Virus record (IMG/VR): IMGVR_UViG_3300045988_160493 | DNA: 40,051 nucleotides | Reading direction: 5' to 3' (one strand) | Source of the DNA: a virus | Shown: positions 1-40,051 of the stretch, piece after piece | How positions within the stretch are numbered: the first letter of the stretch is position 1 | Layout of the letters: every line of letters starts with the position of its first letter | Notes under the pieces: generated by a model | Database searches by the model: none | What the model was told of the DNA's origin: nothing | Seen by the model: the letters and a program-made list of their open reading frames with translations, nothing else | Translations under genes and position numbers: made by a program

Positions 1-159
1 AAAAGCATTAAACTAAAAACAGTTTTAGAAAACGTTGAGAGAGTGAGAAAAAATTGTTTGCAAGATGGCAAAAATTTATTTTCCGTTGAAAATTCAAACT
101 TTTTAACGGATTTAGATATTGCGAAAATTATTTACAAATACGCCACAAGAAAGGCTTAA
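1..159 (+). CDS. 3' part of wrap-around small ORF (hypothetical protein)
   Basis: In-frame continuation of 39994 ORF; TAA at 157-159. Confidence 0.4.
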   Translation, partial: KSIKLKTVLENVERVRKNCLQDGKNLFSVENSNFLTDLDIAKIIYKYATRKA

Positions 160-162
160 AAA

Positions 163-405
163 ATGGAATTCAAAAAAAACGGCAAAGTCTTTAAAATTGA
201 TTTTAATGATAAAGATAACATTATTTTGATAAATGGAAAGGTTTTTAAAGTAGAATATAAAAGCGGCTTTTTCTTAAAATTTGAAAGAAAGCGCATTTTT
301 TCTTATGATTTTAGACTTTTAAAAGCGCAAATTATCGAGTCAATAAATACGGGCTTTTTAGACAGTTATTTTTTTAAAGTCTTTGAAAAAATGCTAAAAT
401 TTTAA
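163..405 (+). CDS. hypothetical early protein (80 aa)
   Basis: ORF track; AT-rich, K/F-rich; packed head-to-tail with neighbours. Confidence 0.4.
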   Translation: MEFKKNGKVFKIDFNDKDNIILINGKVFKVEYKSGFFLKFERKRIFSYDFRLLKAQIIESINTGFLDSYFFKVFEKMLKF

Positions 406-453
406 AACACAAACAAAAAAACAATAAACAATAAAAAATAGAAAGATTAAAAT

Positions 454-735
454 ATGAAAATAAAAGATGTTTTAAAAACCCGTTATTCAAAATTTGAAAA
501 ATCCGAAATTGAAAAACTTTGCGATTTTTATTTAAACAGATATTATACCAAAACTCCATTTTTGAAAAAAATAAAAGAAATGAGTTTCGAGGAAAAATTT
601 TTAACATTTGCAAATGATATTTTAAATCAAAAAAACGGTTCGTTTAAAATATCTGAATTTGAAAAGCGCGTTGCCTTTGCAAATGGCTTTAATTACGCGA
701 AAAATGGCAAATGCGATTTTTACGCAAAACTTTAA
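454..735 (+). CDS. hypothetical early protein (93 aa)
   Basis: ORF track; same strand and codon bias as neighbours. Confidence 0.4.
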   Translation: MKIKDVLKTRYSKFEKSEIEKLCDFYLNRYYTKTPFLKKIKEMSFEEKFLTFANDILNQKNGSFKISEFEKRVAFANGFNYAKNGKCDFYAKL

Positions 736-764
736 AACAATAAAGTACGGAAAGAAAAACAATT

Positions 765-941
765 ATGGAAAAAATTATACAAGAAATAAACAAAAACACG
801 GGCTTTAAAGAAAAAATGTTTAAAATTTACTTTTGGGCAATTTTTGAAAAATCCGCAAAAACGGCTTTTTACGACTATTTAAAAGCCGAATTTCCAAAAA
901 TCACAAAAAAAGCAAGCGGGGAAATTTTGTCGGAAATTTAA
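765..941 (+). CDS. hypothetical small protein (58 aa), below the 60-aa track cutoff
   Basis: ATG 765 preceded by aaagaaaaac; TAA 939-941; fills gap between 735 and 1091. Confidence 0.3.
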   Translation: MEKIIQEINKNTGFKEKMFKIYFWAIFEKSAKTAFYDYLKAEFPKITKKASGEILSEI

Positions 942-1090
942 TTTTTGCAACCTTTTTTGAAAGCAATGTTTTGGAAAAATTAAAAAAAGATGTTGCGGAA
1001 ACCGCAAAATTAAATCCTAGTTTTAAATTTCAAATTCGAGACAATTTAAACCGCATAATTTTTGAAAGTTAAAACACGGAAAAAAAGACT

Positions 1091-1342
1091 ATGGAAACAA
1101 TGGAAAAATTATTGATAAATTGCTTTTATGTTCGCAATAAGGCGGACGCAATAAAACTTTTAAATCTTGTAAAAAAGAGCTTTAAAATTTGCGAAAAGGA
1201 AACCTTTTTCAAAAAAAGCGCAACTGAAAAAAATCTCCATTTTGTAAAAATCACAACGGTTTTTGAAAAATACAAACATATTTATCAACAATATGAGGAA
1301 ATAAAAGATATTGTTAGACTTTCAAACATTCAAACCTTTTAA
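1091..1342 (+). CDS. hypothetical protein (83 aa)
   Basis: ORF track. Confidence 0.4.
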   Translation: METMEKLLINCFYVRNKADAIKLLNLVKKSFKICEKETFFKKSATEKNLHFVKITTVFEKYKHIYQQYEEIKDIVRLSNIQTF

Positions 1343-1346
1343 AACT

Positions 1347-1694
1347 ATGCAAACAATCTATAAAAAATATGATAAAACACTAAATGAAGAGCTTAAAAAC
1401 GTCTGCGCCATTGAAATTGAAAAGCACGGGCGGACATATTGCGTAAAATTTATGAATGTAAAGGCGGCGCGGTCTAACGGTCTTATATGGAGCGGAATTT
1501 TTAACTTTTGCTTAAAAGTCGCCTTGCCGAATGGAAGAGCGTCAACGCTGGAACGGGTGAAAAATTATTTAGAAACAAACGCTGAAAGCCTTTTTGCGGA
1601 ATTTGCGGCTGCGCTTGCGGAGGAAAAGGGCGGAAACGTTGAACGTCTGCGGATATTTAAGGCTAATTTTGAAACGGCAATTTTAAACGGGTAA
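1347..1694 (+). CDS. hypothetical protein (115 aa)
   Basis: Internal ATG at 1347 lies 5 nt after stop of preceding gene; track ORF 1311 start would overlap. Confidence 0.4.
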   Translation: MQTIYKKYDKTLNEELKNVCAIEIEKHGRTYCVKFMNVKAARSNGLIWSGIFNFCLKVALPNGRASTLERVKNYLETNAESLFAEFAAALAEEKGGNVERLRIFKANFETAILNG

Positions 1695-1719
1695 ACACAA
1701 ACACAAAGGATAAAAAACA

Positions 1720-1929
1720 ATGAATATCGAAAAAACAATAAAAAACATTAAACAATGCCGTCCGCGCGGTGATTTTGCACGCGAAACAAAAGTACGCCTT
1801 TTAAAAATTCTCACTGGTCTGGATGCGCAAAAGGCGTCCAATACCGACTTAAACACCATTCGCGGTATTTTTTATAAATTAGCACTTTACCCAGAATTTT
1901 TTATGCTAAAAGACAATTTTGAAAACTAA
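1720..1929 (+). CDS. hypothetical protein (69 aa)
   Basis: ORF track; aaggataaaaaacaATG context. Confidence 0.35.
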   Translation: MNIEKTIKNIKQCRPRGDFARETKVRLLKILTGLDAQKASNTDLNTIRGIFYKLALYPEFFMLKDNFEN

Positions 1930-1949
1930 ACTGGAAAGGAAATAAAACT

Positions 1950-2600
1950 ATGAAAAAAACAATATTCGACATTGAAACACGAGCGCAAGCAGATTTAGAC
2001 TTGCGGGAAAAATGGAATGAGGCTCTTGCCTCCGTCCCTGCAAACTACAAAGATGAAGCAAAGATACAAGCAAAGGCGCAAGAAATCTTTGATAATCTTG
2101 TAGAAAAAACCCCACTGTCGGCTTTAACAGGCGAAATTTGCGCAATCGGCTACACGGAAGCGGGAACAGGCAAAATAAACCTAATACACGGCAAGAGCGA
2201 AGCCGATATTTTAACGGAATTTTTCGGAGCAATATCGAGCTGCGGAGCTTTAAACAGCTATCTTATCGGTTTTAATTCTAAAAATTTCGATATTCCGTTT
2301 ATTCTTCAACGCGCTTGGAAGCTTGGTTTGAAAATCCCGAACGGAATTATGGAAACCGCAAGCATAGGCAGGCTTAGACTGTCGGCGATGAATATCGACC
2401 TTATGGAAAGCTTTAACTTTGGCGCAAAGGCTTTTGTAAGTTTGGATAAAGTTGCAAGGTTTTTAGGAGTTGGCAGAAAATCAGGCAACGGAGCGCAATT
2501 TTGGCAGCTTTACAATACGGACAAAGAAACTGCGCTTGCCTACTTGGCAAACGATGTTCAACTAACAGAAGCAATTTATAACAAAATGTATAATTTCTAA
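1950..2600 (+). CDS. DEDD-family 3'-5' exonuclease (DnaQ / PolB-exonuclease-like), stand-alone
   Basis: N-terminal FDIETRA (Exo I Asp-x-Glu), C-terminal YLANDVQLTEAIYNKM (Exo III Y-x3-D); aaggaaataaaactATG RBS. Confidence 0.6.
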   Translation: MKKTIFDIETRAQADLDLREKWNEALASVPANYKDEAKIQAKAQEIFDNLVEKTPLSALTGEICAIGYTEAGTGKINLIHGKSEADILTEFFGAISSCGALNSYLIGFNSKNFDIPFILQRAWKLGLKIPNGIMETASIGRLRLSAMNIDLMESFNFGAKAFVSLDKVARFLGVGRKSGNGAQFWQLYNTDKETALAYLANDVQLTEAIYNKMYNF

Positions 2601-2630
2601 AACTAAAACAAATACAGAAAGGAAAAAATT

Positions 2631-2924
2631 ATGAAAATTAGAAACATAAACGGCGTACAAAATCAATTTGAAATTAACACGGGCAACGCCTTATATATGC
2701 AATCTTACGAAAGTGTAGTTGCAAAAATCGAAAATGGCAAATTAACACTTGGCAACGACTGGGATTATTCGCAAACAACGATGAAACATCTTAACCAATG
2801 GATTAGAGACAACGCCGCCGATATTCGCAATTATGGTAGGGCGGCGCGGTCGAATACGGCTTATATTCGCAGAGCGTTAAAGCTGGGAGAAATTGAAATT
2901 AAAGACTTGGAAAGGGAATATTAA
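2631..2924 (+). CDS. hypothetical protein (97 aa)
   Basis: ORF track; aaaggaaaaaattATG. Confidence 0.4.
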   Translation: MKIRNINGVQNQFEINTGNALYMQSYESVVAKIENGKLTLGNDWDYSQTTMKHLNQWIRDNAADIRNYGRAARSNTAYIRRALKLGEIEIKDLEREY

Positions 2925-2926
2925 AA

Positions 2927-3088
2927 ATGGAAGAGAAAACAGAAAAGAAACGCTCCGGCAGACCAGCAACGGGTAAAATAGCGGTGAGATATTGCATTAC
3001 CTTGCCGCCAGAAGTTGCGGAAAAGTTGCCAAAGAAAGGCGCAAGCCGTAAAATACAAGCCATTTTAAGGCTTTTTTACAAAATTTAA
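2927..3088 (+). CDS. small basic protein (53 aa), possible DNA-binding (KRSGRPATGK motif)
   Basis: ATG 2927 two nt after previous stop; TAA 3086-3088; Arg/Lys-rich N-terminus. Confidence 0.3.
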   Translation: MEEKTEKKRSGRPATGKIAVRYCITLPPEVAEKLPKKGASRKIQAILRLFYKI

Positions 3089-3124
3089 CTCAAATAAAAA
3101 CACAAAACTAAAAATAGAAAAACA

Positions 3125-3439
3125 ATGAAAAAACAATATAATTTTATAGCATATGAACCAGACGGTTGGTACGAGTGGACAAAAACATTTACGCCTGAAA
3201 AAGACAAAGAATGCTTGTTTATGGAAATTATAGCGGATGAGCGAAAAGGCGAAGTTGTAAGCACATCTTATTATGTCGGACATAATACGGACACTGAATA
3301 TTTCGTATTTTCGGACGGCTCGAAAATCCATAAAAAAGACTTCTGGAACGCGGGCGATTTTAAAAAGGTAATATTATTTAATCCGCACGCACTGCCTGAA
3401 ACTTGCAATATATCGGAATTTAGGATTGTTAAAGACTAA
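3125..3439 (+). CDS. hypothetical protein (104 aa)
   Basis: ORF track. Confidence 0.4.
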   Translation: MKKQYNFIAYEPDGWYEWTKTFTPEKDKECLFMEIIADERKGEVVSTSYYVGHNTDTEYFVFSDGSKIHKKDFWNAGDFKKVILFNPHALPETCNISEFRIVKD

Positions 3440-3457
3440 ACGGAAAGGAAAACAATT

Positions 3458-3718
3458 ATGATAAAAAAGACAAATGAAGAATGGGCGGACATACTTGGAA
3501 GCGATTATTACAGTCTGGAAGCGGACGGCACAAAAACACTGCTTTTTGAGCTTTCGACCGAGGAAATAATCGAAGCAATCGATTTTTATCGGAAAATAAA
3601 AAGTGCCCAAACGACTATGTTTAACACGCCCGAAGAATATGATTATGAAATAAAGAAGTTGCAAGCCGAGCTTTATCGCAGACTTTGCAATAGCCAATTC
3701 AACCCCTTTGTATTTTAG
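3458..3718 (+). CDS. hypothetical protein (86 aa)
   Basis: ORF track; ggaaaggaaaacaattATG RBS. Confidence 0.4.
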   Translation: MIKKTNEEWADILGSDYYSLEADGTKTLLFELSTEEIIEAIDFYRKIKSAQTTMFNTPEEYDYEIKKLQAELYRRLCNSQFNPFVF

Positions 3719-3721
3719 GCT

Positions 3722-4141
3722 ATGAAATACGGAATAATCGCAATCTTGGCAATGGCTACAAACTCCCTATTCGGGGGAGTAGTAGCCGATACTCTTTACC
3801 TTGAAGCAAGAGGAGAGGGAGCGCAAGGCATACGAGCAGTGGCTACGGTGATTTACAACCGAGCAAACGCAAAAAATAAGAGTTTTGAGGCAATTTGCAA
3901 AGAACCAAAACAGTTTAGTTGCTGGAATGGCTCTAAATCACGAGTAATTACCCCTAAAAACGATTTAGACCGCAAAGCCTATAACTTGTGCATAAAAATC
4001 GAAGAAAGCCTTTTAAAAGGCAATTTTGAGCCTTTGGGCGATTGGACACATTATTATGCTTACAAGGTTTGTAATCCGAAGTGGGCGATAGGCGCAAAAA
4101 CTACAACCATAGGCAACCACAAATTTTTGAAAACAAAGTAA
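3722..4141 (+). CDS. SleB-family cell-wall hydrolase (Hydrolase_2) with N-terminal Gly/Ala-rich hydrophobic segment; candidate SAR-type endolysin
   Basis: DTLYLEARGEG...AVATVIYNRA core typical of SleB/cell wall hydrolase domain; N-terminus GIIAILAMATNSLFGGVVA weakly hydrophobic, G/A-rich. Confidence 0.65.
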   Translation: MKYGIIAILAMATNSLFGGVVADTLYLEARGEGAQGIRAVATVIYNRANAKNKSFEAICKEPKQFSCWNGSKSRVITPKNDLDRKAYNLCIKIEESLLKGNFEPLGDWTHYYAYKVCNPKWAIGAKTTTIGNHKFLKTK

Positions 4142-4158
4142 GAAAGGAACGCAAAAAA

Positions 4159-4920
4159 ATGGAAGAAACAAGCTATGTAAATATCCAAGATTGGATGCTT
4201 GAATTGGATTTATCATTGCCAGAAACGGTTATTTTAGCAGTAATTTACGGTTTTAGCCAAGACGGACGAAGCAAATTTAGCGGCTCTTTAAGCTATTTGC
4301 AAAAATGGACAAGGCTAAAAAGCAAGACAAGTGTAATGGCGGCATTAAAAACTTTGGTCGAAAAACAAATTATCAGTAAGCACGACAAAGAAATCAATGG
4401 CGTAAAATTATGTGATTATTCGTACAATGTAGGGGTATATCAAAAATTGATACAGGGTATACCAAAAATTGATACTCATAATATAGAAGATAAAAATATA
4501 GAAGAAAAAGAAAACTATATAAAAGAAAAAGAAGAGCAAAAACGCACCATAGAACAGCAGGCTATTGAAGTCTATAAGGCATACCCACGCCACGTTGGTA
4601 AGCCATTAGCCATTAGAGCTATTAAAACGGCTCTAAAATCGATTTCTTTTGAAGAATTGATTAAACGCACCAGAGACTACGCAGAAGCCGTTAAACGGTC
4701 TCACAAAGACTTGCAATACATTCCTATGCCATCTACTTGGTTTAACCAAGAACGCTACAACGACGACATCTCCGAGCAACTTCCCAGCAATCCATACGCC
4801 ACAGGCAGAGTTGAACGAGTAGAACCGATTAAGCCGAGAACAAAGGCGGAAATACTCCGAGATGAGCCACATCGAGCGCAGGAATTGGCAAACATTGATG
4901 ATGACGATTTTGCATTTTAA
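4159..4920 (+). CDS. replication initiator / replisome-organizer-like protein (N-terminal winged-helix, conserved C-terminal IPMPSTWFNQERYNDD region)
   Basis: ATG 4159 after agaaaggaac RBS (in frame with track ORF 4081); sequence resembles phage replisome organizer N-domain; internal iteron-like direct repeats 4441-4505; DnaC-like loader gene downstream at 9022. Confidence 0.55.
   Translation: MEETSYVNIQDWMLELDLSLPETVILAVIYGFSQDGRSKFSGSLSYLQKWTRLKSKTSVMAALKTLVEKQIISKHDKEINGVKLCDYSYNVGVYQKLIQGIPKIDTHNIEDKNIEEKENYIKEKEEQKRTIEQQAIEVYKAYPRHVGKPLAIRAIKTALKSISFEELIKRTRDYAEAVKRSHKDLQYIPMPSTWFNQERYNDDISEQLPSNPYATGRVERVEPIKPRTKAEILRDEPHRAQELANIDDDDFAF
4441..4505 (+). repeat. iteron-like direct repeats inside the initiator gene (candidate origin)
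   Basis: CAAAAATTGATAC x2 (4441-4453, 4463-4475) and ATATAGAAGA x2 (4481-4490, 4496-4505), then A-rich tract. Confidence 0.45.
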
Positions 4921-4938
4921 ATAAATTCAAAAAAATAG

Positions 4939-4996
4939 TTGACACAGAAAAATAAAACGCTAAATTCATTTGGCAGTTAAAAAAACAACCTACAAT
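4939..4996 (+). promoter_or_regulatory. tandem promoter-like elements in the gap after the replication-initiator gene
   Basis: TTGACA 4939-4944 / N16 / TAAATT, and TTGGCA 4970-4975 / N15 / TACAAT 4991-4996. Confidence 0.35.
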
Positions 4997-5025
4997 ATAG
5001 AAACAATAAAACCTACATAAAAACT

Positions 5026-5121
5026 ATGAATAACGAACAATACCTTAATATCAATCGCACGCAAGAATTGGAGTTTGACAAGCTTCTCAGCGTCATAAAC
5101 GGAAACGGAGGTAAGCAATGA
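5026..5121 (+). CDS. very small ORF (31 aa), ATGA-coupled to next gene
   Basis: ATG 5026, TGA 5119-5121 overlapping ATG 5118 of next gene. Confidence 0.25.
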   Translation: MNNEQYLNINRTQELEFDKLLSVINGNGGKQ

Positions 5122-5345
5122 GAACTTGCAGAGCTTGTAATGGAACGGGCGTCATTAGAGCTGGTTGGAACTATCCCGAACACACTTGTCCCGATTGCGG
5201 TGGGACTGGTGAGGAGCTTGAAGAGGGCATCGATTATTGGGTTTGTTCGCAATGCGGCGAAGAGTTTGACCACGAGCTTGAAGACGGAATTTGTGAAGCT
5301 TGTATAGAGGAAATGGAAGAGCAGAAAATCTCATTGAATGAATAA
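5118..5345 (+). CDS. small acidic zinc-finger protein with two DnaJ-like CxxCxGxG repeats
   Basis: CRACNGTG and CPDCGGTG motifs plus CSQCG...CEAC; C-terminal half strongly acidic. Confidence 0.5.
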   Translation: MRTCRACNGTGVIRAGWNYPEHTCPDCGGTGEELEEGIDYWVCSQCGEEFDHELEDGICEACIEEMEEQKISLNE

Positions 5346-5371
5346 CAACGAATTTATGAAAGGATAAAAAT

Positions 5372-6028
5372 ATGGATAACAATGAACCTAAAATGCGAGC
5401 AGAACAAATCCTCTTCGAGAGGCTTTTTGAAGTAAATGTTTCTTCTCACGTAGAAAAACGCAAAAACGGAAAAGAGGAACTCTCTTATCTTACTTGGGCG
5501 TGGGCGTGGGCAGAACTCCTAAAAATCGTACCAGACGCAAGCTATAAAATCAAAATGTTTGACGGAAAACCTTATGTCTATGATGAAATTCTTGGCTATA
5601 TGGTCTTCACTGAAATGACACTTCTGGGAATGACAAGGGAATGTTGGTTGCCAGTACTCAATGGCAATCTTAAACCTATGCTTTCCAAGCCTTATGAATA
5701 CGAAACAAAGTGGGGCAAAAACAAAGTGGAAAAGGCTACAATGTTTGATATTAACAGGGCGATTATGCGTTGCCTTACAAAAAACATTGCAATGTTTGGT
5801 CTTGGCTTAAAGCTTTATGCGGGCGAGGATTTGACAGAGAATACGACAGAAGTTGCTGACCCGACATTCACACAGGAGCAGGCAAGCAAGGCAATGGAAC
5901 GCTACGGAGAAGCCGTTATAGCCGCTTGTGAAGAAATGGGATACTCCGTACCAACGCAAATTCCACTTTCTCGCAAAAACGAATTCTTCGCGATTTGCAA
6001 GAAGTTTTCAGAACCAAAAGGAGAATAA
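5372..6028 (+). CDS. putative single-strand annealing protein (Sak/DUF1071-like, Rad52 superfamily)
   Basis: LSYLTWAWAWAELLKIVP motif reminiscent of DUF1071/Sak family; located immediately upstream of SSB as in phage recombination modules. Confidence 0.45.
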   Translation: MDNNEPKMRAEQILFERLFEVNVSSHVEKRKNGKEELSYLTWAWAWAELLKIVPDASYKIKMFDGKPYVYDEILGYMVFTEMTLLGMTRECWLPVLNGNLKPMLSKPYEYETKWGKNKVEKATMFDINRAIMRCLTKNIAMFGLGLKLYAGEDLTENTTEVADPTFTQEQASKAMERYGEAVIAACEEMGYSVPTQIPLSRKNEFFAICKKFSEPKGE

Positions 6029-6031
6029 GCA

Positions 6032-6208
6032 ATGAAAAAGATTAAGAAATGGATTATTCGCAAGCTCTTAAAGCGAGAAATCAAAGCACTTTACTCGGCA
6101 TTCGAGGATGTGGCGAATGAGGTTGCAAGGACACAACTCAAAACAGCAAGCAGGACGCGCCTAAACAAGGCGTTGTCTAAATGCAGAAAATGCTTTTACA
6201 AATTCTAA
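6032..6208 (+). CDS. small basic protein (58 aa)
   Basis: ATG 6032 four nt after Sak-like stop; TAA 6206-6208; Lys/Arg-rich with CRKC. Confidence 0.3.
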   Translation: MKKIKKWIIRKLLKREIKALYSAFEDVANEVARTQLKTASRTRLNKALSKCRKCFYKF

Positions 6209-26010: not shown

Positions 26011-27552
26011 TTATTGTGCAGTTGTTAAAGCAATGTGTGTACCCTCTACCTTGCGGATTTGGTCAGCCGCTCCGTAGATAAGCAAGAATGAGAAGAACTT
26101 TTCGCCAGTCTGTGCGTCGGTCTCAATCGTAGAATTAAACCAGAAGCCATTTTGCTGAATAGCCTGCCAAGCCATATCGTCGCCAGTCTGCGCCTCAATA
26201 AACGCCTTTTCGCTCGGAGTAATGGTCTTGTTGCGAATAATTACGCCGTTGCTAATGCCCTGCGACCAAACGTCGTTCAAGTTTGCTTCAATCTTTCCCT
26301 TACCGTCCGCATTTGCGGGTATGCTGTCATTGAGCAAAAACAAATTGAGCGTATTAACGATAACGCTGTTTTTCAGCCAAATTGCATTGAAAGCAATCGT
26401 CATATCAGCAAACTGACCCAAGCACTTGCCTCTCTGGAAGAAAGCAATCAATTTGCCCGCAGTCTGAGTTGCGCCATAATAGTTAACTTTCAAAGCGTCA
26501 AGAGCGTCCGAAACAGCCCCTGTTGAAACTGTCGGAGTGTCGCCAGTAAACTTCTGAAACATAAAGTTTACGCTCGCGTCGGATTTCTGGAAGTCAACGC
26601 ACGCTCCAATAGCCATAGGCTGGTAAACCTGCAATTCGCTAAGATTGTCATAAACCAAAGCGCAATCGTAGTCTTTAAGAGCGTTAGCGTATGTAGCCGC
26701 AATGTTCTGCGTCTTTACCAATATCATATAAATGTACTGGCTGTTTGCATTTGTATTCCATTCGGCAACCGCCTCAATGTCGGTCAAGTCAAGCTCTTCT
26801 ATAAACGCGAATGTGTAGCAGTTGTCGCTGGCGTCCATTACGCGCTCAACTTCCTGAGCAATGCTATTTGCGCCAGAGTTGCCGTCGGAAAGGATTGCAT
26901 AATCAATGCTCCAACCCAAGACGCTTGCCAATGTACCCTCGCAAGCTTGGAAAGAGCCATAACCAGTGGGAAGCGTCAAAACAAACCTGTATCCATTGCC
27001 CTCAACGTTTTCATAGCTTACAGTCGCCGCCGAGAACGGAGTTGCTTCGCCAACTTGGATTGTTCTAATTGCTTTCTGCAAGGCAGTAGCAACATCAGCA
27101 AGAGAAGAAGCAGCGGTAATTTCGCTTGCAAGAGCTGTGAGGTTATCGCCCGCAACCGAACCACTCTGCAAACCCAAAGACGGGTCAACATAGCTTACAG
27201 TCAAGGATAAATCGCTTGCTGCCGCCTGTATCGCCGTAAGCGAAAACGTATTAAAGCCGCTCAAAATGGAAGCCCCAACTGCGCTTGTGGTGTAGCGTGC
27301 AAAAGAAATCAATTTAGGCTGTTTGTTCCTCTTGGAGATAAACTTGAAATACTTATTTGCATAAGCATATTCATCTGAACTCTGACCGAAGTACAACCCA
27401 ACGTTCTTTGCGCTTGTAAACTCCAAAACTTTGCCCATAGGTGCAAGAGCGTTTGTCGTGAACCAGCGACCCATTGTAGATTTGAAAAATACTTCCGGTG
27501 AGCCACCCGCCAAAGAAAGTATCTTAACATATTTGCTAATCGGTATTGCCAT
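26011..27552 (-). CDS. tail sheath protein (putative, DUF3383-like)
   Basis: 513 aa, immediately upstream of tube gene, contractile-tail module synteny. Confidence 0.55.
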   Translation of the reverse strand: MAIPISKYVKILSLAGGSPEVFFKSTMGRWFTTNALAPMGKVLEFTSAKNVGLYFGQSSDEYAYANKYFKFISKRNKQPKLISFARYTTSAVGASILSGFNTFSLTAIQAAASDLSLTVSYVDPSLGLQSGSVAGDNLTALASEITAASSLADVATALQKAIRTIQVGEATPFSAATVSYENVEGNGYRFVLTLPTGYGSFQACEGTLASVLGWSIDYAILSDGNSGANSIAQEVERVMDASDNCYTFAFIEELDLTDIEAVAEWNTNANSQYIYMILVKTQNIAATYANALKDYDCALVYDNLSELQVYQPMAIGACVDFQKSDASVNFMFQKFTGDTPTVSTGAVSDALDALKVNYYGATQTAGKLIAFFQRGKCLGQFADMTIAFNAIWLKNSVIVNTLNLFLLNDSIPANADGKGKIEANLNDVWSQGISNGVIIRNKTITPSEKAFIEAQTGDDMAWQAIQQNGFWFNSTIETDAQTGEKFFSFLLIYGAADQIRKVEGTHIALTTAQ

Positions 27553-30088: not shown

Positions 30089-31201
30089 TTATGCGCCTAC
30101 CTTGCGAACTACGCCAATGCCGTATCCAACAAACGCACCAGCCGTAGCATTCGAGTAGGTTTCCTTAAAGTATGTGTCGCGGCGTTCAAAGCCAACCAAG
30201 AACATTCTCTGCTGAACAAACTGGTCAACATTCTTTTCGCCGTCAACTTCTTCCGCGACAACGTACACAACATTCTGACCGCCCAACGCGCCGTCAAACT
30301 GCGGAACGTAATGGATTTCGCCTTTCGGATATGCGCCCTTGAACCAAGCTTCAACCGAGCCAGCAAAGCCATTTGCGCCATACTGCGGAACAGCAGTCAT
30401 CGACTGAGAAGCCGCCATTGGGAGAATGAGCTTAAATGCGTCGGTGCTTGCGTCAAAGTTGCCATTGAGCTTCAATTCAAGCTCGCGAACCATACCGCGA
30501 ATGTCGTTGACGATTTCAATGTAAGTCTTGTCTTTGAGCATTGTCGAGCCAGACGCGCCAACAGACAATGTGCCGTAAGCGGGAAGTCTCGGGTCATTCA
30601 GCAAGCCGTAGTTAGCCTTGTTGCCGTAATTGAAACCGTTGAACGCAACCAAATTCCTCTGGATTTCCAAAGCATTGGTCGTTGCAACCATTTTCTTTTC
30701 CTTTGCGTCAAGCCTCATACGAGCAACCTGAGCTGCTTCCAAAGTGCCAACCGAAACAGTTGAGAGGAAGCGCACAACAGAACGCTTGTTGAAGTTGACA
30801 TTGAAGTTGCTGTTTTCACCGTTGACATAGTCGCCATACAACGCTACGTCGCCGAGAGTTTCAACTTCGGGAACAACTACTTCTTCGTCTTCCCAAGAGC
30901 CAGCATTTACAACGCCCATAATCTCGTCAGCCTTGCGACCAGCATAAATGGTCTTGATGACTTTCGGAGACCACCACTGCAAAAGCTGAACAGGAGTGCC
31001 AACTGAGGGAACAGTCGCCATTTCAGCGGCGTCAAAGCCATAAGACGAGGCGTTGCGGATAATTTCATTCTTTGCAACGTCTGAGAAGCCCAAGCCAGCC
31101 GCCGAGAATACTCCAACGTCCGCTTCGTCGTATGTAGCCTTGTAAAGGTCAGCTTTTACGCCTGCCCCGATACGAGATTTTTCTTCTAAATTACATTTCA
31201 T
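30089..31201 (-). CDS. major capsid protein (DUF2184-like family)
   Basis: 370 aa; downstream of DUF2213-like scaffold gene, the conserved DUF2213-DUF2184 pairing; position after portal. Confidence 0.6.
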   Translation of the reverse strand: MKCNLEEKSRIGAGVKADLYKATYDEADVGVFSAAGLGFSDVAKNEIIRNASSYGFDAAEMATVPSVGTPVQLLQWWSPKVIKTIYAGRKADEIMGVVNAGSWEDEEVVVPEVETLGDVALYGDYVNGENSNFNVNFNKRSVVRFLSTVSVGTLEAAQVARMRLDAKEKKMVATTNALEIQRNLVAFNGFNYGNKANYGLLNDPRLPAYGTLSVGASGSTMLKDKTYIEIVNDIRGMVRELELKLNGNFDASTDAFKLILPMAASQSMTAVPQYGANGFAGSVEAWFKGAYPKGEIHYVPQFDGALGGQNVVYVVAEEVDGEKNVDQFVQQRMFLVGFERRDTYFKETYSNATAGAFVGYGIGVVRKVGA

Positions 31202-31223: not shown

Positions 31224-32027
31224 TTAAACTTGCGGGATAAAGCCAATCTTTACAACCGAACCAGCAGTACCGCCAACTACAACTTGGCAACCCTTAATCT
31301 GTGTCTGACCAGAGCTTGCTGTGCCAGCGGAAAGAACGCCAGTTGCATTCGTGAAGAATACGCCGTCGCCAACGTTAGCGTCGTTTGCCAAAGCCACGAA
31401 AATGTAGCCAGACTTAGCCATTGCGCCAGAAACGCCGTCGGGAACGTTGAGTGTCGGGACAAGACCGTTGTAAATCGCCTGATTGTGCGGATTTACAAAT
31501 ATGCCCAAGAACGCTCCTGTTCCGCCCATAACAGCCGAAGAGCCGTCAGCGTCAAGCGTAAACGCTCTGCCGATTGTAGCATTTGTACCCGCGATTGCGT
31601 CAACGCCACCAGACATATCAGTGATTGTTATATTTTCGCTGTCGGTAGAAAGCGTATAGCCATTGCCAACAACGCCCGTCTGTCTCGCTGTCAAAGCGAC
31701 CACTGCGGAAGAAGCCACTCCCGAAAAGAACGGGGAAGTCGCGTTAATCGCCGTCGCCAAGTTTGCAGCAGTACCGCCCGCATTTGCGCCAATTTCTACT
31801 TCATAGGGAGTAGCAGGAGTGCCACTTACAAATGTATAGTCAACACCGTTTACCACAACCTTTTCTGCCGCCGTCGGCTGGTTATCTATTTCAATAGAAC
31901 CAGTAGCCGCAACAGCCGCCGAACCATTAGAACCCTTTACAACATAAGCAACAGCCGATTTGAGAGCATCGTTAACCCAAGTCCCAATCGTGCCGATTGC
32001 CTGTTTGATATTTACCTGTGTTTGCAT
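31224..32027 (-). CDS. Ala/Gly/Thr-rich structural protein (267 aa), possible head decoration
   Basis: Position between scaffold and capsid genes; low-complexity A/G/T/V composition. Confidence 0.35.
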   Translation of the reverse strand: MQTQVNIKQAIGTIGTWVNDALKSAVAYVVKGSNGSAAVAATGSIEIDNQPTAAEKVVVNGVDYTFVSGTPATPYEVEIGANAGGTAANLATAINATSPFFSGVASSAVVALTARQTGVVGNGYTLSTDSENITITDMSGGVDAIAGTNATIGRAFTLDADGSSAVMGGTGAFLGIFVNPHNQAIYNGLVPTLNVPDGVSGAMAKSGYIFVALANDANVGDGVFFTNATGVLSAGTASSGQTQIKGCQVVVGGTAGSVVKIGFIPQV

Positions 32028-32048
32028 TTTGATTTTCCTTTTGTTGAA

Positions 32049-33443
32049 TTATTTAGAAAATATTTTGTTTAGCCTGCTCTTTACTTCGTCTTCCAAATTT
32101 ACCGCCTTATGCTGTTCATTTGCGTCCAAAGTAAATACAACTTTATGAGCGGACTTCGCCGAGATGAAACCATTGATTGTGGCAACTGCATTGCCGTTAG
32201 TTTCAAGGTTGAGCTTCTTGCAAGCTTCTTCCGCCATTTGCTCTACGCTTTCCATAGAGTCATAGGTGAATTTGCCGCAATGAGGGAAAACCTTAGAAGC
32301 AAAGTCGTCCATAGCACGAATGGTCTTGATTGCCTCTTCTTTCGCCTGCTTGCGAATTTCGTCGGCGTCCATACCGCAACCGTCTTTGGTTTCTTCTTCC
32401 TTTACTTCTTCTTTCTTTTCCTCTTTTACCTCTTCCTTTTTCTCTTCCTTGTCGTCCGCTTCCGATTTTTCAGAACCATTGTAGGCAATTTCTTCTGCCT
32501 TGCCAATGATTGTGCGGATAATTTCGTCGTCAAGGTCTTTGCTTTTGAGGATACCGCCAATCTGGTCAATCAGCTTGCGCTTATCAACCTTTTCGTCCTC
32601 CACCTTTTTGGTGGTGAAGCCAGTCTTGCTGTCTTTATCCTTTTTGACAACAATCTTGTCTTCTGTATCCTTTTTCTTCTCTTCTTCGGCGTCGCCCTTT
32701 TCAGACGCTTTGGATTTTTCCTCTTCGTCTTTTTTAGGTTCTTCGTCTTCGGAACGAGTATATTTGTTTGCGTCTATCCATTCTTTGTGTTCAGGGAATT
32801 TTGCGTAAAGCTTTTCCGCAGAAACAAATTCGTCAGACGTCTTTTTTTCGACCTCTTTCTGTTCTTTGTCTTTCTCCATTATAACTTCCTTTTCTTTGTT
32901 GTTAATGTCAAATTCAACACTATCAAAAGTGTTTGCTTCGCGAAAATCATAAACCCTCATTTCAGAACCCATACGACCATTCTTCACAAGTGCCAAATGG
33001 TTTCCGCGCAAATTCCTCTGAATAAAGTCATACCTTTGACCATTAAAAACGCCTCTGCTTCTCTCATAAACAGATTTGTAGCCAAGCGAAAGCTCTTTTA
33101 CGCCATTCAAAATTTTGTTCTTCATTGCTTCCGACCAAATCTTCAAATCGCCAAAAAGCTTGCCAGCCTTGTACTTAACGTTCATAAGCACGCCATTTGC
33201 GGGTCTCCTATCATAAGGAGTGCCTCCCTTGCCCAACATTTCGTGGTCAATAATAAAGGGAACGCCATTAAATGTTTCGGCGGCTTTTTCCAACTCTTCG
33301 GCTGGTCTATAAACAGGATAAAGCTTGCCCTCTTCCAAGTCGGGATACCCAATCATTTTCCCGCTATACATATAGACACCCTCTGCCGATAGCGGATTAT
33401 CCCTAATCAATTCATACGAATTGGAGTCAACTTCTTTTGCCAT
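32049..33443 (-). CDS. DUF2213-like prohead scaffold/core protein with long K/E-rich acidic-basic central region
   Basis: N-terminal SGKMIGYPDLEEGKLYPVYRPAEELEKAAETFNGVPFIIDHE; central ~150 aa of KEEKKEE repeats. Confidence 0.5.
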   Translation of the reverse strand: MAKEVDSNSYELIRDNPLSAEGVYMYSGKMIGYPDLEEGKLYPVYRPAEELEKAAETFNGVPFIIDHEMLGKGGTPYDRRPANGVLMNVKYKAGKLFGDLKIWSEAMKNKILNGVKELSLGYKSVYERSRGVFNGQRYDFIQRNLRGNHLALVKNGRMGSEMRVYDFREANTFDSVEFDINNKEKEVIMEKDKEQKEVEKKTSDEFVSAEKLYAKFPEHKEWIDANKYTRSEDEEPKKDEEEKSKASEKGDAEEEKKKDTEDKIVVKKDKDSKTGFTTKKVEDEKVDKRKLIDQIGGILKSKDLDDEIIRTIIGKAEEIAYNGSEKSEADDKEEKKEEVKEEKKEEVKEEETKDGCGMDADEIRKQAKEEAIKTIRAMDDFASKVFPHCGKFTYDSMESVEQMAEEACKKLNLETNGNAVATINGFISAKSAHKVVFTLDANEQHKAVNLEDEVKSRLNKIFSK

Positions 33444-35412: not shown

Positions 35413-38346
35413 TCAAAACATTCCTTTTTTTCCAAAAGCAATTTCTCCTGCTTGTGTCATCATATCGCATATATCGTCGTGTTTATGACTGCCGTCTCCG
35501 CACAATAATACCATTTCCGCAATGATTTCTTTGCTTCTTGGGTCGTTTTTATCGTTTGGCAACAGCACATTTCCCGCCTCCAAGTAAGGAAATAGCGAAT
35601 TGTTCCACTTTGTCATCTTGTCAAAGCCCTTATCTTTCACTGGAATGACCGAAACTCCGCCCTCTCGCCTCATTCTTTGTATCAATTCCATACCAGAAGC
35701 CTTATCTTCAATGTAAAATACGTTTGCAGGCAAGCCTCTCACGCCCCCACTCCACCTATTCTTAAAGGCAAAGAACTCTTTGAGCAAATCTACCGCTTCA
35801 ATCTTCTTGTGCAATAAATCTATAAGCCTTAAATCGTTCTTTTCGGTTATTGCCCACAATCCCACCGCCGTATAGTCATTCCATTCATTAGTTTTAAATG
35901 CGGTATCGGCAGTGAAGAACACTTTTTTGTACCTAACAGTGTCCAAAGGATTGTAAAACTTAAACCATTCCTCCTTTACAAGCTCGCCGCCCAAAACAAC
36001 AGGCGATTGTTGCATTTGAGCCGCAAAAATGTATGGAGATTGCTTTTTTTCTTTGAGCAAGACTTCTGTTGGGGATTTCCATTCCCAGTTGCTTTTTGGC
36101 GGATTTACATCTTCATTAAGCGCAGGAACGCGAATAATCTTCCAATCGTCGGCTTCATTCGCTTCAATATAGCCTACCAAGTCGTCAACAGCAAGCCTTT
36201 GCATAATTAGCACAATAGGCGTCTTTGAGGGATTGTTTAAACGCTTTTTAATGACCGCTTGGTAGTTATCCTCTACTTTCTTTTTCTCCGCTTCCGAATT
36301 AAAGAATTTAGCATTGAGAGGGTCGTCGATAATAAAAGCTCCTCCGAACCTATCACCGATTTTTCCACAATTATGCACAAAAACTCTTGACATTCCAACA
36401 AACAAGTTATTGACTGTTCTTAAAGTTAAACAATAACTGGGTTTATTATGAATATCATAGATAGCAAATATGTTCCTATTCCTCAATTTAAAGGATATTT
36501 CGTTTCCAGAGACGGAAGCGTTTATTCTTCTAAAACAAGAAAAGAGCTTCGCCCTTATCTTTCGCGTAAAGGCTACAAATGCGTTGACCTTTGCGTTTGT
36601 GGGAAAAGAGTTAAAACTCGTATCCACCAACTGGTTGCTTGGACATTTCTTGGAGCGCAACCTACTGGAATGGTAGTTAGACATCTTGACGGAAATGCAC
36701 TCAACAATTCTGTATCCAATCTTGCCTATGGAACACAATCCGATAATGAGCAAGATAGCATAAGACATTATGGACACCACGCCAGATACCACAAAATTAC
36801 GCCAGAACAAGCCAAAGAAATTGCGCAGGACAGACGCCCCTATAAACAGATTGCTAAGGATTATGGTCTTAATTTTCGATATGTAGCCGACATTAAGGCT
36901 GGAATTTATTGGGGTCGTATTACTGAGGGTCTCAGATTTCAAAGAAGCCGTAGTGTCGCGTGGAACAAAACGCAATTTTCTCCTAAGGATACTAAGTTTA
37001 TCTGCGACAAAAATAATTCTCGAAAAGATATAATAGAACGGTTTGGCATAAGCAAATCCGTTATTTCTCGCATCAGAAAGCAGAACAGAGTTGACGCTTA
37101 ATTCGTCGGCTCTTTTCTCGCCCTCCGTAGTGTGAAATATATGGTCGTTGGTGGCGTCTAAAACCTCGCCGTCCTCAAAGATTATGCGCTTGTATTGGGA
37201 AATGTCATTCTTGACGTAGCGTTCAATCTCTTCAAAGGAAATCTTCTCGCCGTCAAATGTCATTATTTTAACTTTCTTCTTTCCCTCTACAATGTCGCCA
37301 ATCTTTTCAACGCCATTTTCCGTCCACACAGGAGTATCTTTATCGAAACAGCCAAAACCTGTCATAGCACCCCCCATTGGAGAAGCCCTATAAGTGCCTT
37401 TCTCTTTCGTCTCCCACAATGCCTTTGCTTCGGTATTGCTGTTCATTTGAACGCCAAAGAGCTTTTGATAAAATGGGTGTCGAATTATATTCAAAATGTC
37501 GTCCGACATCTTGTTTGTTATGCGCTCTTCATAGCAAGTATAGATAAAATTGCAAGTGGAGTCTATCCCAAAGCACCACGAAATCCACATAATCATTAGA
37601 ATACTGTTGTGGGTAGGCTTTAATCTATTGCCAACGCAATAAACGCCGCCCTCAACTTGGATACAATTCCCAATTTTGCCAAAATCGCCACGCTCAACGC
37701 TTTCAAAGAAAATTTCTTTTTTATGGGCTTTTAAATCTCTTCTCTGCCTTGCAACATCATTGCTTATTTCTGGCAATAAGTATCTGTCGCGATAGAAACC
37801 TTTTTCAAGCATTTCTTTTGTCTCAATCGTCCTCTCTTTGCGCAAATGCCTATCATAAACAACCCATTCGTGATTTTCGTGGCAATAGATTTCGTCTCCG
37901 TCGGAAAATCTTACCTTGCAATTCGCAGGAGCTTTCTCGCTAACTGCCAGAACCTTAACAAATTTCCCGCTTGGACTTAACACATAATCCCCAACGACTA
38001 TTTCAGCGTGCGTTATCCAACCCCTCTTTGTAAGCACAGGTGTTTCGTCCGCTATAAGCTTCCCCCAGCGCGGAGGTATGCTAATAGCTAAATTCTTCCT
38101 TTCTGGATTGCCGTAAACAAATTCTTCCAAAGACTTTATGATTTCTTTGTGAAACCAGCAAGTGCGAAAGTAATCCTTGTATATCGCGCGATAAAAGAAT
38201 TGAATGTAAAACTCAAAATCGCTCTTTAACAACGCAGACGTGTAAGGCAACATCTCATCGCTAAGGTATTTGTCAAAATCAATGGTGTTGTTCTCCCCAT
38301 ACAACCCATTCCCATAATTAACCCTTGCTTTACTTTCCATACCCAA
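35413..38346 (-). CDS. terL: terminase large subunit precursor (977 aa) interrupted by two inteins
   Basis: Extein carries Walker A PPRWGK(S), Walker B-like AFIIDDP, coupling motif FAAQMQQSP, nuclease-domain acidic residues FFTADTAF, YIEDKASG, HDDICD; two Hint-domain insertions. Confidence 0.85.
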   Translation of the reverse strand: MGMESKARVNYGNGLYGENNTIDFDKYLSDEMLPYTSALLKSDFEFYIQFFYRAIYKDYFRTCWFHKEIIKSLEEFVYGNPERKNLAISIPPRWGKLIADETPVLTKRGWITHAEIVVGDYVLSPSGKFVKVLAVSEKAPANCKVRFSDGDEIYCHENHEWVVYDRHLRKERTIETKEMLEKGFYRDRYLLPEISNDVARQRRDLKAHKKEIFFESVERGDFGKIGNCIQVEGGVYCVGNRLKPTHNSILMIMWISWCFGIDSTCNFIYTCYEERITNKMSDDILNIIRHPFYQKLFGVQMNSNTEAKALWETKEKGTYRASPMGGAMTGFGCFDKDTPVWTENGVEKIGDIVEGKKKVKIMTFDGEKISFEEIERYVKNDISQYKRIIFEDGEVLDATNDHIFHTTEGEKRADELSVNSVLLSDARNNGFAYAKPFYYIFSRIIFVADKLSILRRKLRFVPRDTTASLKSETLSNTTPINSSLNVGYISKIKTIILSNLFIGASVLRNFFGLFWRNFVVSGVVSIMSYAILLIIGLCSIGKIGYRIVECISVKMSNYHSSRLRSKKCPSNQLVDTSFNSFPTNAKVNAFVAFTRKIRAKLFSCFRRINASVSGNEISFKLRNRNIFAIYDIHNKPSYCLTLRTVNNLFVGMSRVFVHNCGKIGDRFGGAFIIDDPLNAKFFNSEAEKKKVEDNYQAVIKKRLNNPSKTPIVLIMQRLAVDDLVGYIEANEADDWKIIRVPALNEDVNPPKSNWEWKSPTEVLLKEKKQSPYIFAAQMQQSPVVLGGELVKEEWFKFYNPLDTVRYKKVFFTADTAFKTNEWNDYTAVGLWAITEKNDLRLIDLLHKKIEAVDLLKEFFAFKNRWSGGVRGLPANVFYIEDKASGMELIQRMRREGGVSVIPVKDKGFDKMTKWNNSLFPYLEAGNVLLPNDKNDPRSKEIIAEMVLLCGDGSHKHDDICDMMTQAGEIAFGKKGMF
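36370..37350 (-). mobile_element. intein 2 (about 327 aa, TerL residues 333-659), canonical class 1, with its central region antisense to an HNH gene
   Basis: Block A CFDKDTPVWTENGVEKIGDIVEG, block B VLDATNDHIFHTTEGEKRADEL, block F/G IFAIYDIHN...FVGMSRVFVHN followed by +1 Cys (CGKIGDRF). Confidence 0.7.
36448..37101 (+). CDS. HNH homing endonuclease (NUMOD4 + HNH_3 type), on the strand opposite to terL, nested inside intein 2
   Basis: PQFKGYFVSRDGSVYS (NUMOD4-like), HQLVAWTFLG...VRHLDGNALNNSVSNLAYGTQSDN (HNH), C-terminal helix-turn-helix-like ISKSVISRIRK. Confidence 0.8.
   Translation: MNIIDSKYVPIPQFKGYFVSRDGSVYSSKTRKELRPYLSRKGYKCVDLCVCGKRVKTRIHQLVAWTFLGAQPTGMVVRHLDGNALNNSVSNLAYGTQSDNEQDSIRHYGHHARYHKITPEQAKEIAQDRRPYKQIAKDYGLNFRYVADIKAGIYWGRITEGLRFQRSRSVAWNKTQFSPKDTKFICDKNNSRKDIIERFGISKSVISRIRKQNRVDA
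37606..38058 (-). mobile_element. mini-intein 1 (about 151 aa, TerL residues ~97-247) inserted in the Walker A P-loop; class-3-like (no N-terminal Cys/Ser)
   Basis: Block A LIADETPVLTKRGW...VVGDYV, block B DEIYCHENHEW (Trp at B:12), block F GNCIQVEGG (Cys at F:4), block G KPTHN then +1 Ser. Confidence 0.6.
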
Positions 38347-39738: not shown

Positions 39739-39756
39739 TGTTCTACGTGGAACAAT
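39739..39756 (+). promoter_or_regulatory. second copy of the CACGTG-centred palindrome (TGTTCTACGTGGAACAAT), preceded by a G8 tract and a GC-rich hairpin
   Basis: Matches 13501-13518 at 16/17 positions. Confidence 0.4.
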
Positions 39757-39993
39757 TAAATTAAATATAAAGTGTGAGAAAGAGGCAAAGTATGTTGTTT
39801 TTGGCAATGCTATAATAAATAGAATTTATATAAACAATGAATTGAAAGGCGGTTGCAATAGATAAGCGCAAGGCAATAAGTCAAGCATAAAGTGAATAAA
39901 AAAAATATGCAAAAAATTCAAAAAATACGATTTTTTTCTTGCAATGTTGGAAAGAATATGCGAAGATATAAGCATAATCAAGAAAGGTAAGAT

Positions 39994-40051
39994 ATGAAAA
40001 GCATTAAACTAAAAACAGTTTTAGAAAACGTTGAGAGAGTGAGAAAAAATT
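39994..40051 (+). CDS. 5' part of a small ORF that continues across the window junction to position 159 (54 aa total)
   Basis: ATG at 39994 preceded by aaaggtaag RBS-like purine stretch; reading frame continues in phase into positions 1-159 because the last 55 nt equal the first 55 nt. Confidence 0.4.
   Translation, partial: MKSIKLKTVLENVERVRKN
39997..40051. repeat. 55-bp terminal overlap identical to positions 1-55 (circular-assembly / linearisation overlap rather than a biological repeat)
   Basis: Exact identity seen directly. Confidence 0.9.

Follow-up and report, generated by a model that had tools for sequence, protein, structure and literature searches.

The 40,051-nucleotide (nt) viral sequence IMGVR_UViG_3300045988_160493 from IMG/VR, hereafter called the window, carries a gene for the large terminase subunit (TerL) that is interrupted by an intein. 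Between the two splicing lobes of this intein, on the opposite strand and codon-in-register with terL, lies a homing-endonuclease gene (HEG) of the I-HmuI-like HNH type. It is likely, in our view, that the element is a mobile class-1 terL intein for which the separate antisense HNH protein would act as homing nuclease in trans, while splicing would restore TerL. The general architecture has already been described for other nucleases; what is new is the HNH/NUMOD4 nuclease family and the broad non-actinophage range, and the case is also set apart by an explicit codon rule and a complete allele series.

The terL precursor is a single continuous open reading frame (ORF) of 977 codons, as it is in all complete relatives with the same nesting, and therefore does not present itself as a fractured gene. 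When both of its inteins are taken out, a product of 499 amino acids (aa) is left; the spliced length of about 499 aa given in a first-pass annotation of the window, made without database searches, is thus right only if intein 1 is removed together with intein 2. The 499-aa sequence matches the annotated TerL of cultured phages (E ~1e-68) and, in profile searches, the Terminase_6C nuclease domain, and the precursor as modelled by AlphaFold matches solved TerL structures (D6E, T4 gp17 and HK97). A megablast search with terL returned no match among cultured phages. The ORF is listed from a TTG at 38346, and an ATG at 38340 is the likelier start, because close homologues begin MESK.

Intein 2 begins with Cys1 (CFDKDTPVWTENG), contains the block B motif ATNDHIFHT, ends in RVFVHN and is followed by Cys+1, all of which can be read in the sequence as first annotated, and its Cys1, ATNDH, VHN (His-Asn) and Cys+1 are the residues that define a class-1 intein. 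It is located at the TGFG/CGKIG junction, upstream of the Walker-B motif IIDDP. The intein-less TerL L001 (492 aa, 69% identity to the window terL) and the near-identical homologues P0087 and P0090, which have no intein 2, lack exactly these 327 codons (GFG/AG.. versus GFG/intein/CG..), which fixes both insertion points to the residue. In profile comparison, intein 2 scored 41.7 bits with the N-terminal model TIGR01445 (intein_Nterm; cut-off 24.5) and a marginal 13.0 bits with the short C-terminal model TIGR01443 (cut-off 15.6). Sequence, TIGR01445 and the empty homologues therefore agree with the earlier placement of an intein at residues 333-659. DnaE inteins in the PDB are matched by sequence (E 1.5e-5).

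The structural comparisons were made with an alignment-based AlphaFold2 (AF2) model of the whole terL precursor, in which the pLDDT (predicted local distance difference test) is given as 10-residue block means; a single-sequence AF2 model of the intein was uninformative (pLDDT 44) and was replaced by this one. The precursor model matches solved inteins (Npu DnaE, the Ssp DnaB and RecA mini-inteins, and gp41-1), and both lobes have block means of 70-91. Protein splicing of intein 2 is predicted, and it is supported indirectly by the essential nature of terL, by the viability of the cultured phage BUCT618, which has the same arrangement, and by the presence of the window allele on 15 contigs.

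The protein encoded by the nested gene shows, in order, a probable NUMOD4-type N-terminus, an HNH_3 catalytic core and a C-terminal helix-turn-helix (HTH). It matches HNH_3 with 41.5 bits (E 1e-10; cut-off 24.8) and I-HmuI (PDB 1U3E) with an E of 1.6e-11 over residues 12-106; the NUMOD4 score of 22.9 bits (E 1e-4) is just below the cut-off of 23.4, and this region is covered by the alignment to the N-terminus of I-HmuI. The catalytic residues R78, H79, N87, N91, N100 and D103 are invariant in nine aligned homologues. Profile searches on the two translated strands thus placed the intein N-terminal model on the - strand and HNH_3 on the + strand, both above their cut-offs, and the first reading of a complete HNH gene is upheld.

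The HNH gene and the terL ORF are antisense to each other in exact codon register. TTA, CTA and TCA are the sole sources of in-register antisense stops, and the HNH gene contains none of them, which is why the terL frame is open, for 218 codons as the first-pass annotation had stated. The other four alternative frames across the same stretch contain 8-21 stops each. HNH codons 1-8 are indeed antisense to IFAIYDIH, which was first labelled as block F and is the beta-strand just before it; block F proper of intein 2 is SYCLTL..NNLFV. The HNH stop codon TAA is the reverse complement of the TTA codon for Leu84 (RADEL), in the last strands of the N-lobe, so that its earlier description as antisense to the end of block B holds only approximately, the actual position being about 10 residues after block B. 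Since the gene starts and stops within the intein lobes, about 16 codons at its 5' end and 9 at its 3' end have a function on both strands. Opposite the HNH ATG, as its reverse complement, stands a His codon (..H..SYC), invariant among the HEG-bearing inteins that were compared; at this position Pro or Asp is found in the mini-intein alleles of close relatives, and His in other mini-inteins (P0014 and P0015). The features of the locus are collected in Table 1.

Table 1. Features of the terL locus, in coordinates of the window.
Feature	Coordinates	Strand	Remarks
terL precursor ORF	35413..38346	-	977 codons from TTG; holds two inteins
Intein 2, class 1, 327 aa	36370..37350	-	ORF residues 333-659
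Hint N-lobe of intein 2	37075..37350	-	intein residues 1-92; block-mean pLDDT 76-91
Linker in terL frame	36496..37074	-	intein residues ~93-285; antisense translation of the HNH gene
Hint C-lobe of intein 2	36370..36495	-	intein residues ~286-327, FKLRNRNIFAIYDIHNKPSYCLTLRTVNNLFVGMSRVFVHN; block-mean pLDDT 70-89
Homing-endonuclease gene, I-HmuI-like, 217 aa	36448..37101	+	nested between the splicing lobes of intein 2
Dual-function overlap A	36448..36495	both	HNH codons 1-16 versus first strand of the intein C-lobe
Dual-function overlap B	37075..37101	both	last 8 HNH codons and stop versus N-lobe residues 84-92 (LSVNSVLLS)
TTGACA, candidate -35	36387..36392	+	antisense to block-G codons Met-Ser-Arg
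First 36 nt of C-extein	36334..36369	-	1-2 differences among all intein-bearing alleles, HEG or mini
Intein 1, mini-intein, 151 aa	37606..38058	-	in the Walker-A P-loop (GK/S)

The linker that the terL frame encodes between the lobes is rich in Ser, Ile, Leu, Asn and Phe, basic, and contains one transmembrane-like hydrophobic stretch. It had no Pfam or NCBIfam match in profile searches and its pLDDT is mostly below 50, in agreement with the earlier view that it is not a folded domain. A functional in-frame linker domain was rejected as a candidate. Lineages share 33-52% identity in the HNH translation and 17-36% in the linker translation. Substitutions in the HNH frame are most frequent at the third codon position, then the first, then the second, and the third position of the linker frame is the least variable. 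The window and P0085, a 93%-identical allele, differ in 44 codons without any stop arising; counted in the HNH frame these are 30 synonymous and 14 nonsynonymous, and in the linker frame 6 and 38. The HNH frame is under protein-level purifying selection, and the linker frame appears to have the avoidance of stop codons as its single constraint, without conservation as a protein. From the frame-specific substitutions and the low linker identity and pLDDT it follows that the HNH protein and the Hint lobes are kept as proteins and the linker as an open frame only. In this form the dual selection proposed at first is borne out, both by the substitutions across relatives on the two strands and by the codon counts in six lineages given below.

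The same nesting was found in at least 12 diverged loci, including the cultured Escherichia coli phage BUCT618. All close HNH homologues in IMG/VR (L018-L025; 43-52% identity) are nested antisense and in-register, in inteins at the same TerL site (TGFG/C...HN/CG) and with an open terL frame. In BUCT618 (L027, OM735461.1), an HNH gene of 223 aa (1001..1672, +) is located inside terL (20..2389, -), in an intein whose site is about 10 residues further along TerL, immediately ahead of the Walker-B motif IIIDDP. GenBank lists only 'terminase large subunit' there and the HNH gene is unannotated; the gene calls for the metagenomic contigs that were looked up likewise give terL only. BUCT618 was found through the HNH protein only; tblastn of the intein against cultured phages gave only N-lobe matches in unrelated inteins, and a literature search for BUCT618 found nothing. 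The metagenomic TerL L031 (P0005, 1526 aa; 1501..6081) has three inteins, namely a P-loop intein with an in-frame LAGLIDADG domain and two adjacent inteins about 10 residues apart, at both sites, each of which holds an antisense in-register HNH gene (3310..4032 and 4372..5106). A second metagenomic TerL, L032, shows the same nesting, as do contigs binned with Clostridia, Bacillota and Bacteroidales metagenome-assembled genomes (MAGs) (L038, L039, L040 and L044).

The intein alone had no match in a word-indexed protein search, and an exhaustive search of 1.84 billion representatives then gave 83, with about 30 clusters at 50% identity aligning over the whole intein including the linker. Compared with the window, other lineages are 32-38% identical in the TerL exteins, 26-50% in the Hint lobes and 38-52% in the HNH proteins. 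An inversion produced by assembly was rejected, since one isolate genome and no fewer than 12 independent assemblies agree in the orientation. A terminase-associated HNH protein for cos cleavage was also rejected, given that the gene is dispensable (absent from near-identical phages) and of I-HmuI type. In rV5-like coliphages (L037, phage rV5; L036, Escherichia phage 19-1-2) a homologous HNH gene on the same strand interrupts terL, whose annotation is a join of three pieces or a set of separate pieces; the same invasion has been solved there in another way.

Empty, mini-intein and HEG-bearing alleles all occur in one phage species, whose exteins are mostly 90-100% identical in nt sequence. The window allele (P0084) is the one found, identical, on the 15 contigs. 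P0085 has the HEG-bearing intein 2 without intein 1; a 148-aa mini-intein occupies the intein-2 site in P0086 and P0088/89, and in P0001 from an ~80%-identical phage; and the site is empty in P0087 and P0090. The empty terL allele carries GGTGCTATGACGGGTTTTGGAGCGGGCAAGATTGGAAGCAAATTTGGTGGTGGA, and in P0087 the empty allele contains GGTTTTGGAGCGGGCAAGATTGGAAGCAAATTTGGTGGTGGA. In P0015, where the deletion is partial, a stub of linker is left, and this points to decay by way of deletion.

The N-lobe of the window has 83-98% nt identity to the population alleles, and its protein sequence is near-identical in mini-intein and HEG-bearing ones. Most of the linker segment (~36525..37075) is missing from the mini-intein alleles. 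The region 36367..36546, which includes the C-lobe, is 90-100% identical in nt to P0085 and 58-82% to the mini alleles; the HEG-bearing and mini forms are therefore not related by simple deletion in situ. The mini-intein allele L029 was found to hold no antisense HNH remnants beyond what the shared intein codons impose.

The exteins beside the insertion also differ with its presence. Empty and intein-bearing alleles differ at 17 of the first 33 nt of the C-extein and at 2 of 24 positions on the N-extein side, and the C-extein flank probably belongs to the recognition site of the nuclease or to a co-conversion tract. A private patch of the window, about 120 nt of C-extein (36247..36366, -), is ~78% identical to four alleles that are otherwise 95-100% identical, which points to a tract co-converted from a more remote donor. 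Such flank differences are the expected footprints of target-site differences and co-conversion. Homing by the HNH protein is predicted on this indirect basis, that is, presence/absence polymorphism and co-segregation of the flank.

The TTGACA hexamer of Table 1 has a counterpart in eight of the nine other nested upstream regions compared, where TTGAC(T/G) or TTGATT is followed after 17 nt by a -10-like hexamer beginning with TAT (TATTAT or TATGAT in five of them, the weaker TATGGT or TATTTG in three). Some 55 nt separate the motif from the HNH ATG downstream of it, and its reverse complement forms part of the block G/F codons. The window has kept it despite a 2-nt shift against the codons, with Met-Ser-Arg in place of Ser-Gln, and it is missing from the mini-intein alleles (GISG, GNSG). 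It may be the promoter of the HNH gene, which we offer as a lead. No AAGGA-type Shine-Dalgarno (SD) sequence precedes the HNH gene, while 20 of 31 other genes have one, and a generic promoter/terminator scan gave no + strand promoter upstream of it.

The following sequence of events is proposed for the mobile intein. An antisense transcript, which a weak promoter within the block-G codons may drive, would yield the HNH protein, and during co-infection this protein would nick or cut an intein-less terL next to TGFG/AGK. Recombinational repair would then copy the intein, the endonuclease gene and a flank of about 30-130 nt into the cut allele. In the precursor protein made from it, the Hint lobes would fold around a junk linker of about 190 residues, splice the intein out and restore TerL. 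Loss of the endonuclease gene would give rise to mini-intein alleles.

Several points weigh against this scheme. No convincing -10 or SD sequence follows the TTGACA in the window, and splicing, transcription of the + strand and nuclease activity are all predictions made from sequence. A hydrophobic linker of about 190 residues could hinder folding of the precursor. The conservation of the HNH proteins, higher than that of the exteins, could in part reflect slow evolution instead of transfer. Finally, the divergence of the C-terminal region indicates that this population did not go through a simple series of gain and subsequent in-situ deletion.

Alternatively, the HNH gene could be a selfish element in its own right whose target lies in intein DNA. 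It would home into mini-intein alleles that lack a HEG instead of into intein-less terL, and the intein would be the safe harbour in which its insertion does no harm. Mini-intein and HEG-bearing alleles coexist in one phage species, and the C-lobe and the region upstream of it are distinct in HEG-bearing alleles, as if a cassette had been imported with the 5' flank of the HNH gene; secondary invasion of inteins by free-standing endonuclease genes is favoured in one preprint (bioRxiv 10.1101/2025.01.02.630785) and in a second (bioRxiv 10.64898/2026.09.14.751524). We nevertheless consider it unlikely, given that the extein flank too co-segregates with the presence of the intein and is alike in mini and HEG-bearing alleles, and that the two TerL sites, a and b, each have their own HNH lineage, as if specificity tracked the terL site. 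The two models are compatible and not exclusive. A tentative extension, which is rather doubtful at present, is a three-tier nesting in which the HNH gene, with its own block-G promoter, would be a parasite of the intein that homes into mini-inteins, and the intein in turn a parasite of terL. If this were true, in-register antisense would be the only geometry in which synonymous choice alone keeps the host frame open, and a general rule would follow for the way in which free-standing endonuclease genes turn into intein domains.

Little credence can be given to the possibility that the locus is a relic, with an HNH gene that is unexpressed or inactive, an immobile intein, and live selection only on an open terL. 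The window has no recognisable SD or -10 sequence, and the mini-inteins and the partial deletion in P0015 show that the gene does decay. On the other hand, the HNH ORFs are intact with invariant catalytic residues in the nine aligned lineages, the excess of HNH-synonymous change is seen even between 93%-identical alleles, and presence/absence polymorphism is accompanied by signatures of flank co-conversion. An unexpressed antisense ORF would, moreover, gain stops quickly.

Chance or codon bias, by which the open terL frame would be a by-product of genome codon usage, looks plausible only within the window. The first-pass annotation called the open frame unexpected in AT-rich DNA, which is a weak statement for the window alone: GC content is ~0.40, TTA, CTA and TCA together make up 2.6% of the codons in the genes of this phage, and the probability of none among 217 codons is ~0.006, rising to 0.013 when the real content of Leu and Ser is taken into account. 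Four of 37 other genes also have in-register antisense-open runs of at least 217 codons; they encode the head maturation protease, the major head protein, the tail sheath and one poorly annotated head gene. Expected counts of the forbidden codons were then taken from the codon usage of each locus. Every nested HNH gene counted has zero TTA, CTA or TCA codons, including six independent lineages in which usage is far less favourable; the probability of zero ranges from 1e-2 to 5e-9 per lineage, with a combined value of ~2e-27. Six non-nested HNH homologues used as control (free-standing or on the strand of the host gene) contain 6-24 forbidden codons each, that is, 6-24 antisense stops. In every case, moreover, it is the in-register frame that is open, and it runs on without a break into both Hint lobes. 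The excess over chance is weak in the window alone and decisive once the related loci are included, and at the family level the chance explanation is refuted.

That the linker is a real in-frame domain with a spurious HNH ORF, that the segment is removed at the RNA level as a group I intron, or that the intein is split has nothing in its favour except the open frame itself and is hardly credible, since the linker has no family match, low pLDDT and its least variable position at the third codon position, the + strand ORF matches HNH_3 and I-HmuI, and a scan with E up to 1 found no Rfam intron; selection for an open terL frame argues that ribosomes read through it, and terL, which has no stop there, is unlike the fractured genes of Dassa et al. 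2009 (PMC2677866).

The first-pass annotation took the architecture to be undescribed, which does not hold. The preprint bioRxiv 10.1101/2025.01.02.630785 reports antisense LAGLIDADG and VSR-like ORFs in actinophage inteins, including those of TerL, as well as an out-of-frame EndoVII-like intein ORF, and cites Gorbalenya 1998 and Gogarten 2002 for antisense LAGLIDADG ORFs in the Ssp DnaX and Cau SpoVR inteins. The terL intein agrees with the definition of an antisense-endonuclease intein given there, with an ORF antisense between the splicing blocks and an uninterrupted intein frame. The LAGLIDADG and VSR-like cases share several features with the present one: an opposite-strand nuclease between the splicing blocks with the intein and extein frame open, an in-frame translation without recognisable fold, a sporadic distribution that suggests continuing transfer, and a proposed origin by invasion of an intein by a free-standing endonuclease gene.

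The nuclease of the terL intein is of the HNH_3/NUMOD4 type and therefore differs from the antisense examples described. HNH is absent from the four non-canonical types that the same preprint lists and is given there as in-frame only, whereas here NUMOD4, HNH_3 and HTH are encoded antisense. The hosts there are actinophages, while here they are non-actinobacterial (an uncultured myovirus-like phage, BUCT618, and Clostridia and Bacteroidales MAG contigs), and the codon-level mechanism and the within-species allele series documented here were not seen in the parts of that preprint that were read. In full-text literature searches neither an antisense-HNH intein nor a family of such breadth outside actinophages was found, HNH being there an in-frame intein domain or free-standing.

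Other systems resemble the terL intein in part. A cyanobacterial dnaX intein with an out-of-frame LAGLIDADG ORF has been studied by frame-specific selection analysis (bioRxiv 10.64898/2026.09.14.751524). There too the reading frames overlap, that of the endonuclease under purifying and that of the intein under relaxed selection, empty, mini and full alleles occur side by side, and secondary invasion of a mini-intein is proposed; it differs in the LAGLIDADG nuclease, the cellular host gene and the +2 frame relation of the ORF. In the fractured genes with split inteins of Dassa et al. 2009, a free-standing endonuclease gene lies between the halves. There too a gene of free-standing type occupies the endonuclease insertion point of the intein and the same evolutionary route is proposed, but the nucleases are GIY-YIG and Vsr-like instead of HNH, and the host gene is in two ORFs with presumed trans-splicing, whereas terL is continuous and cis-splicing is expected.

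I-HmuI and the HNH gene of rV5-like terL belong to the same family and have the same domain order as the nested gene, and the latter also targets terL. Unlike it, they are intron-borne or free-standing, lie on the same strand and split the host gene; I-HmuI-related same-strand genes have 6-24 in-register antisense stops and the nested ones none. An out-of-frame HNH insertion of the ShiLan type in a phage methylase (PMC11855218) likewise hides an HNH gene in a host ORF without closing it, but it is on the same strand and without an intein splicing domain, while canonical Hint lobes flank the HNH gene here.

Intein 1, in the P-loop, has the class-3 hallmarks described in PMC2807308, with Leu1, a Trp in block B (HEW), a Cys in block F (GNCIQ), a Thr-His-Asn end and Ser+1. 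The class-3 DnaB intein 6BS8 is matched by the AF2 model with a template-modelling (TM) score of 0.79-0.80, for which the aligned region of the model is not reported. This intein is missing in P0085 and P0088/89 and holds an in-frame LAGLIDADG domain in P0090; its presence varies among near-identical phages and is therefore polymorphic independently of intein 2.

In the rest of the window, + strand antisense ORFs lie opposite head genes at 31230..32072 (280 aa) and 32109..33392 (427 aa), neither with a family match in the profile scan, and further antisense-open runs over 30089..31201 and 26011..27552 include those over the major head and tail sheath genes. These long runs look like a by-product of the avoidance of TTA, CTA and TCA in structural genes, and they set the background rate for the terL/HNH case. 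At the end of the window (39750..40051), GC content falls to 0.27 and both GC and AT skew reverse, and a genome terminus or an origin-like region may be located here; an identical TerL is also found on a 40,123-nt contig.

The HNH family thus joins the short list of nucleases that sit antisense inside inteins, and the arrangement is no curiosity of actinophages, as it extends over a sizeable terminase family of about 30 clusters at 50% identity. It follows a simple and checkable codon rule for two genes that share DNA on opposite strands, and one species offers an unusually complete natural series of empty, HEG-bearing and mini-intein alleles. The omission of the nuclease gene from gene calls and from the GenBank record of BUCT618 points to a blind spot of annotation. 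With E. coli and BUCT618 there is a cultured pair in which splicing, antisense expression and homing are directly testable, and the locus bears on how free-standing endonuclease genes become intein domains and on whether they parasitise inteins.

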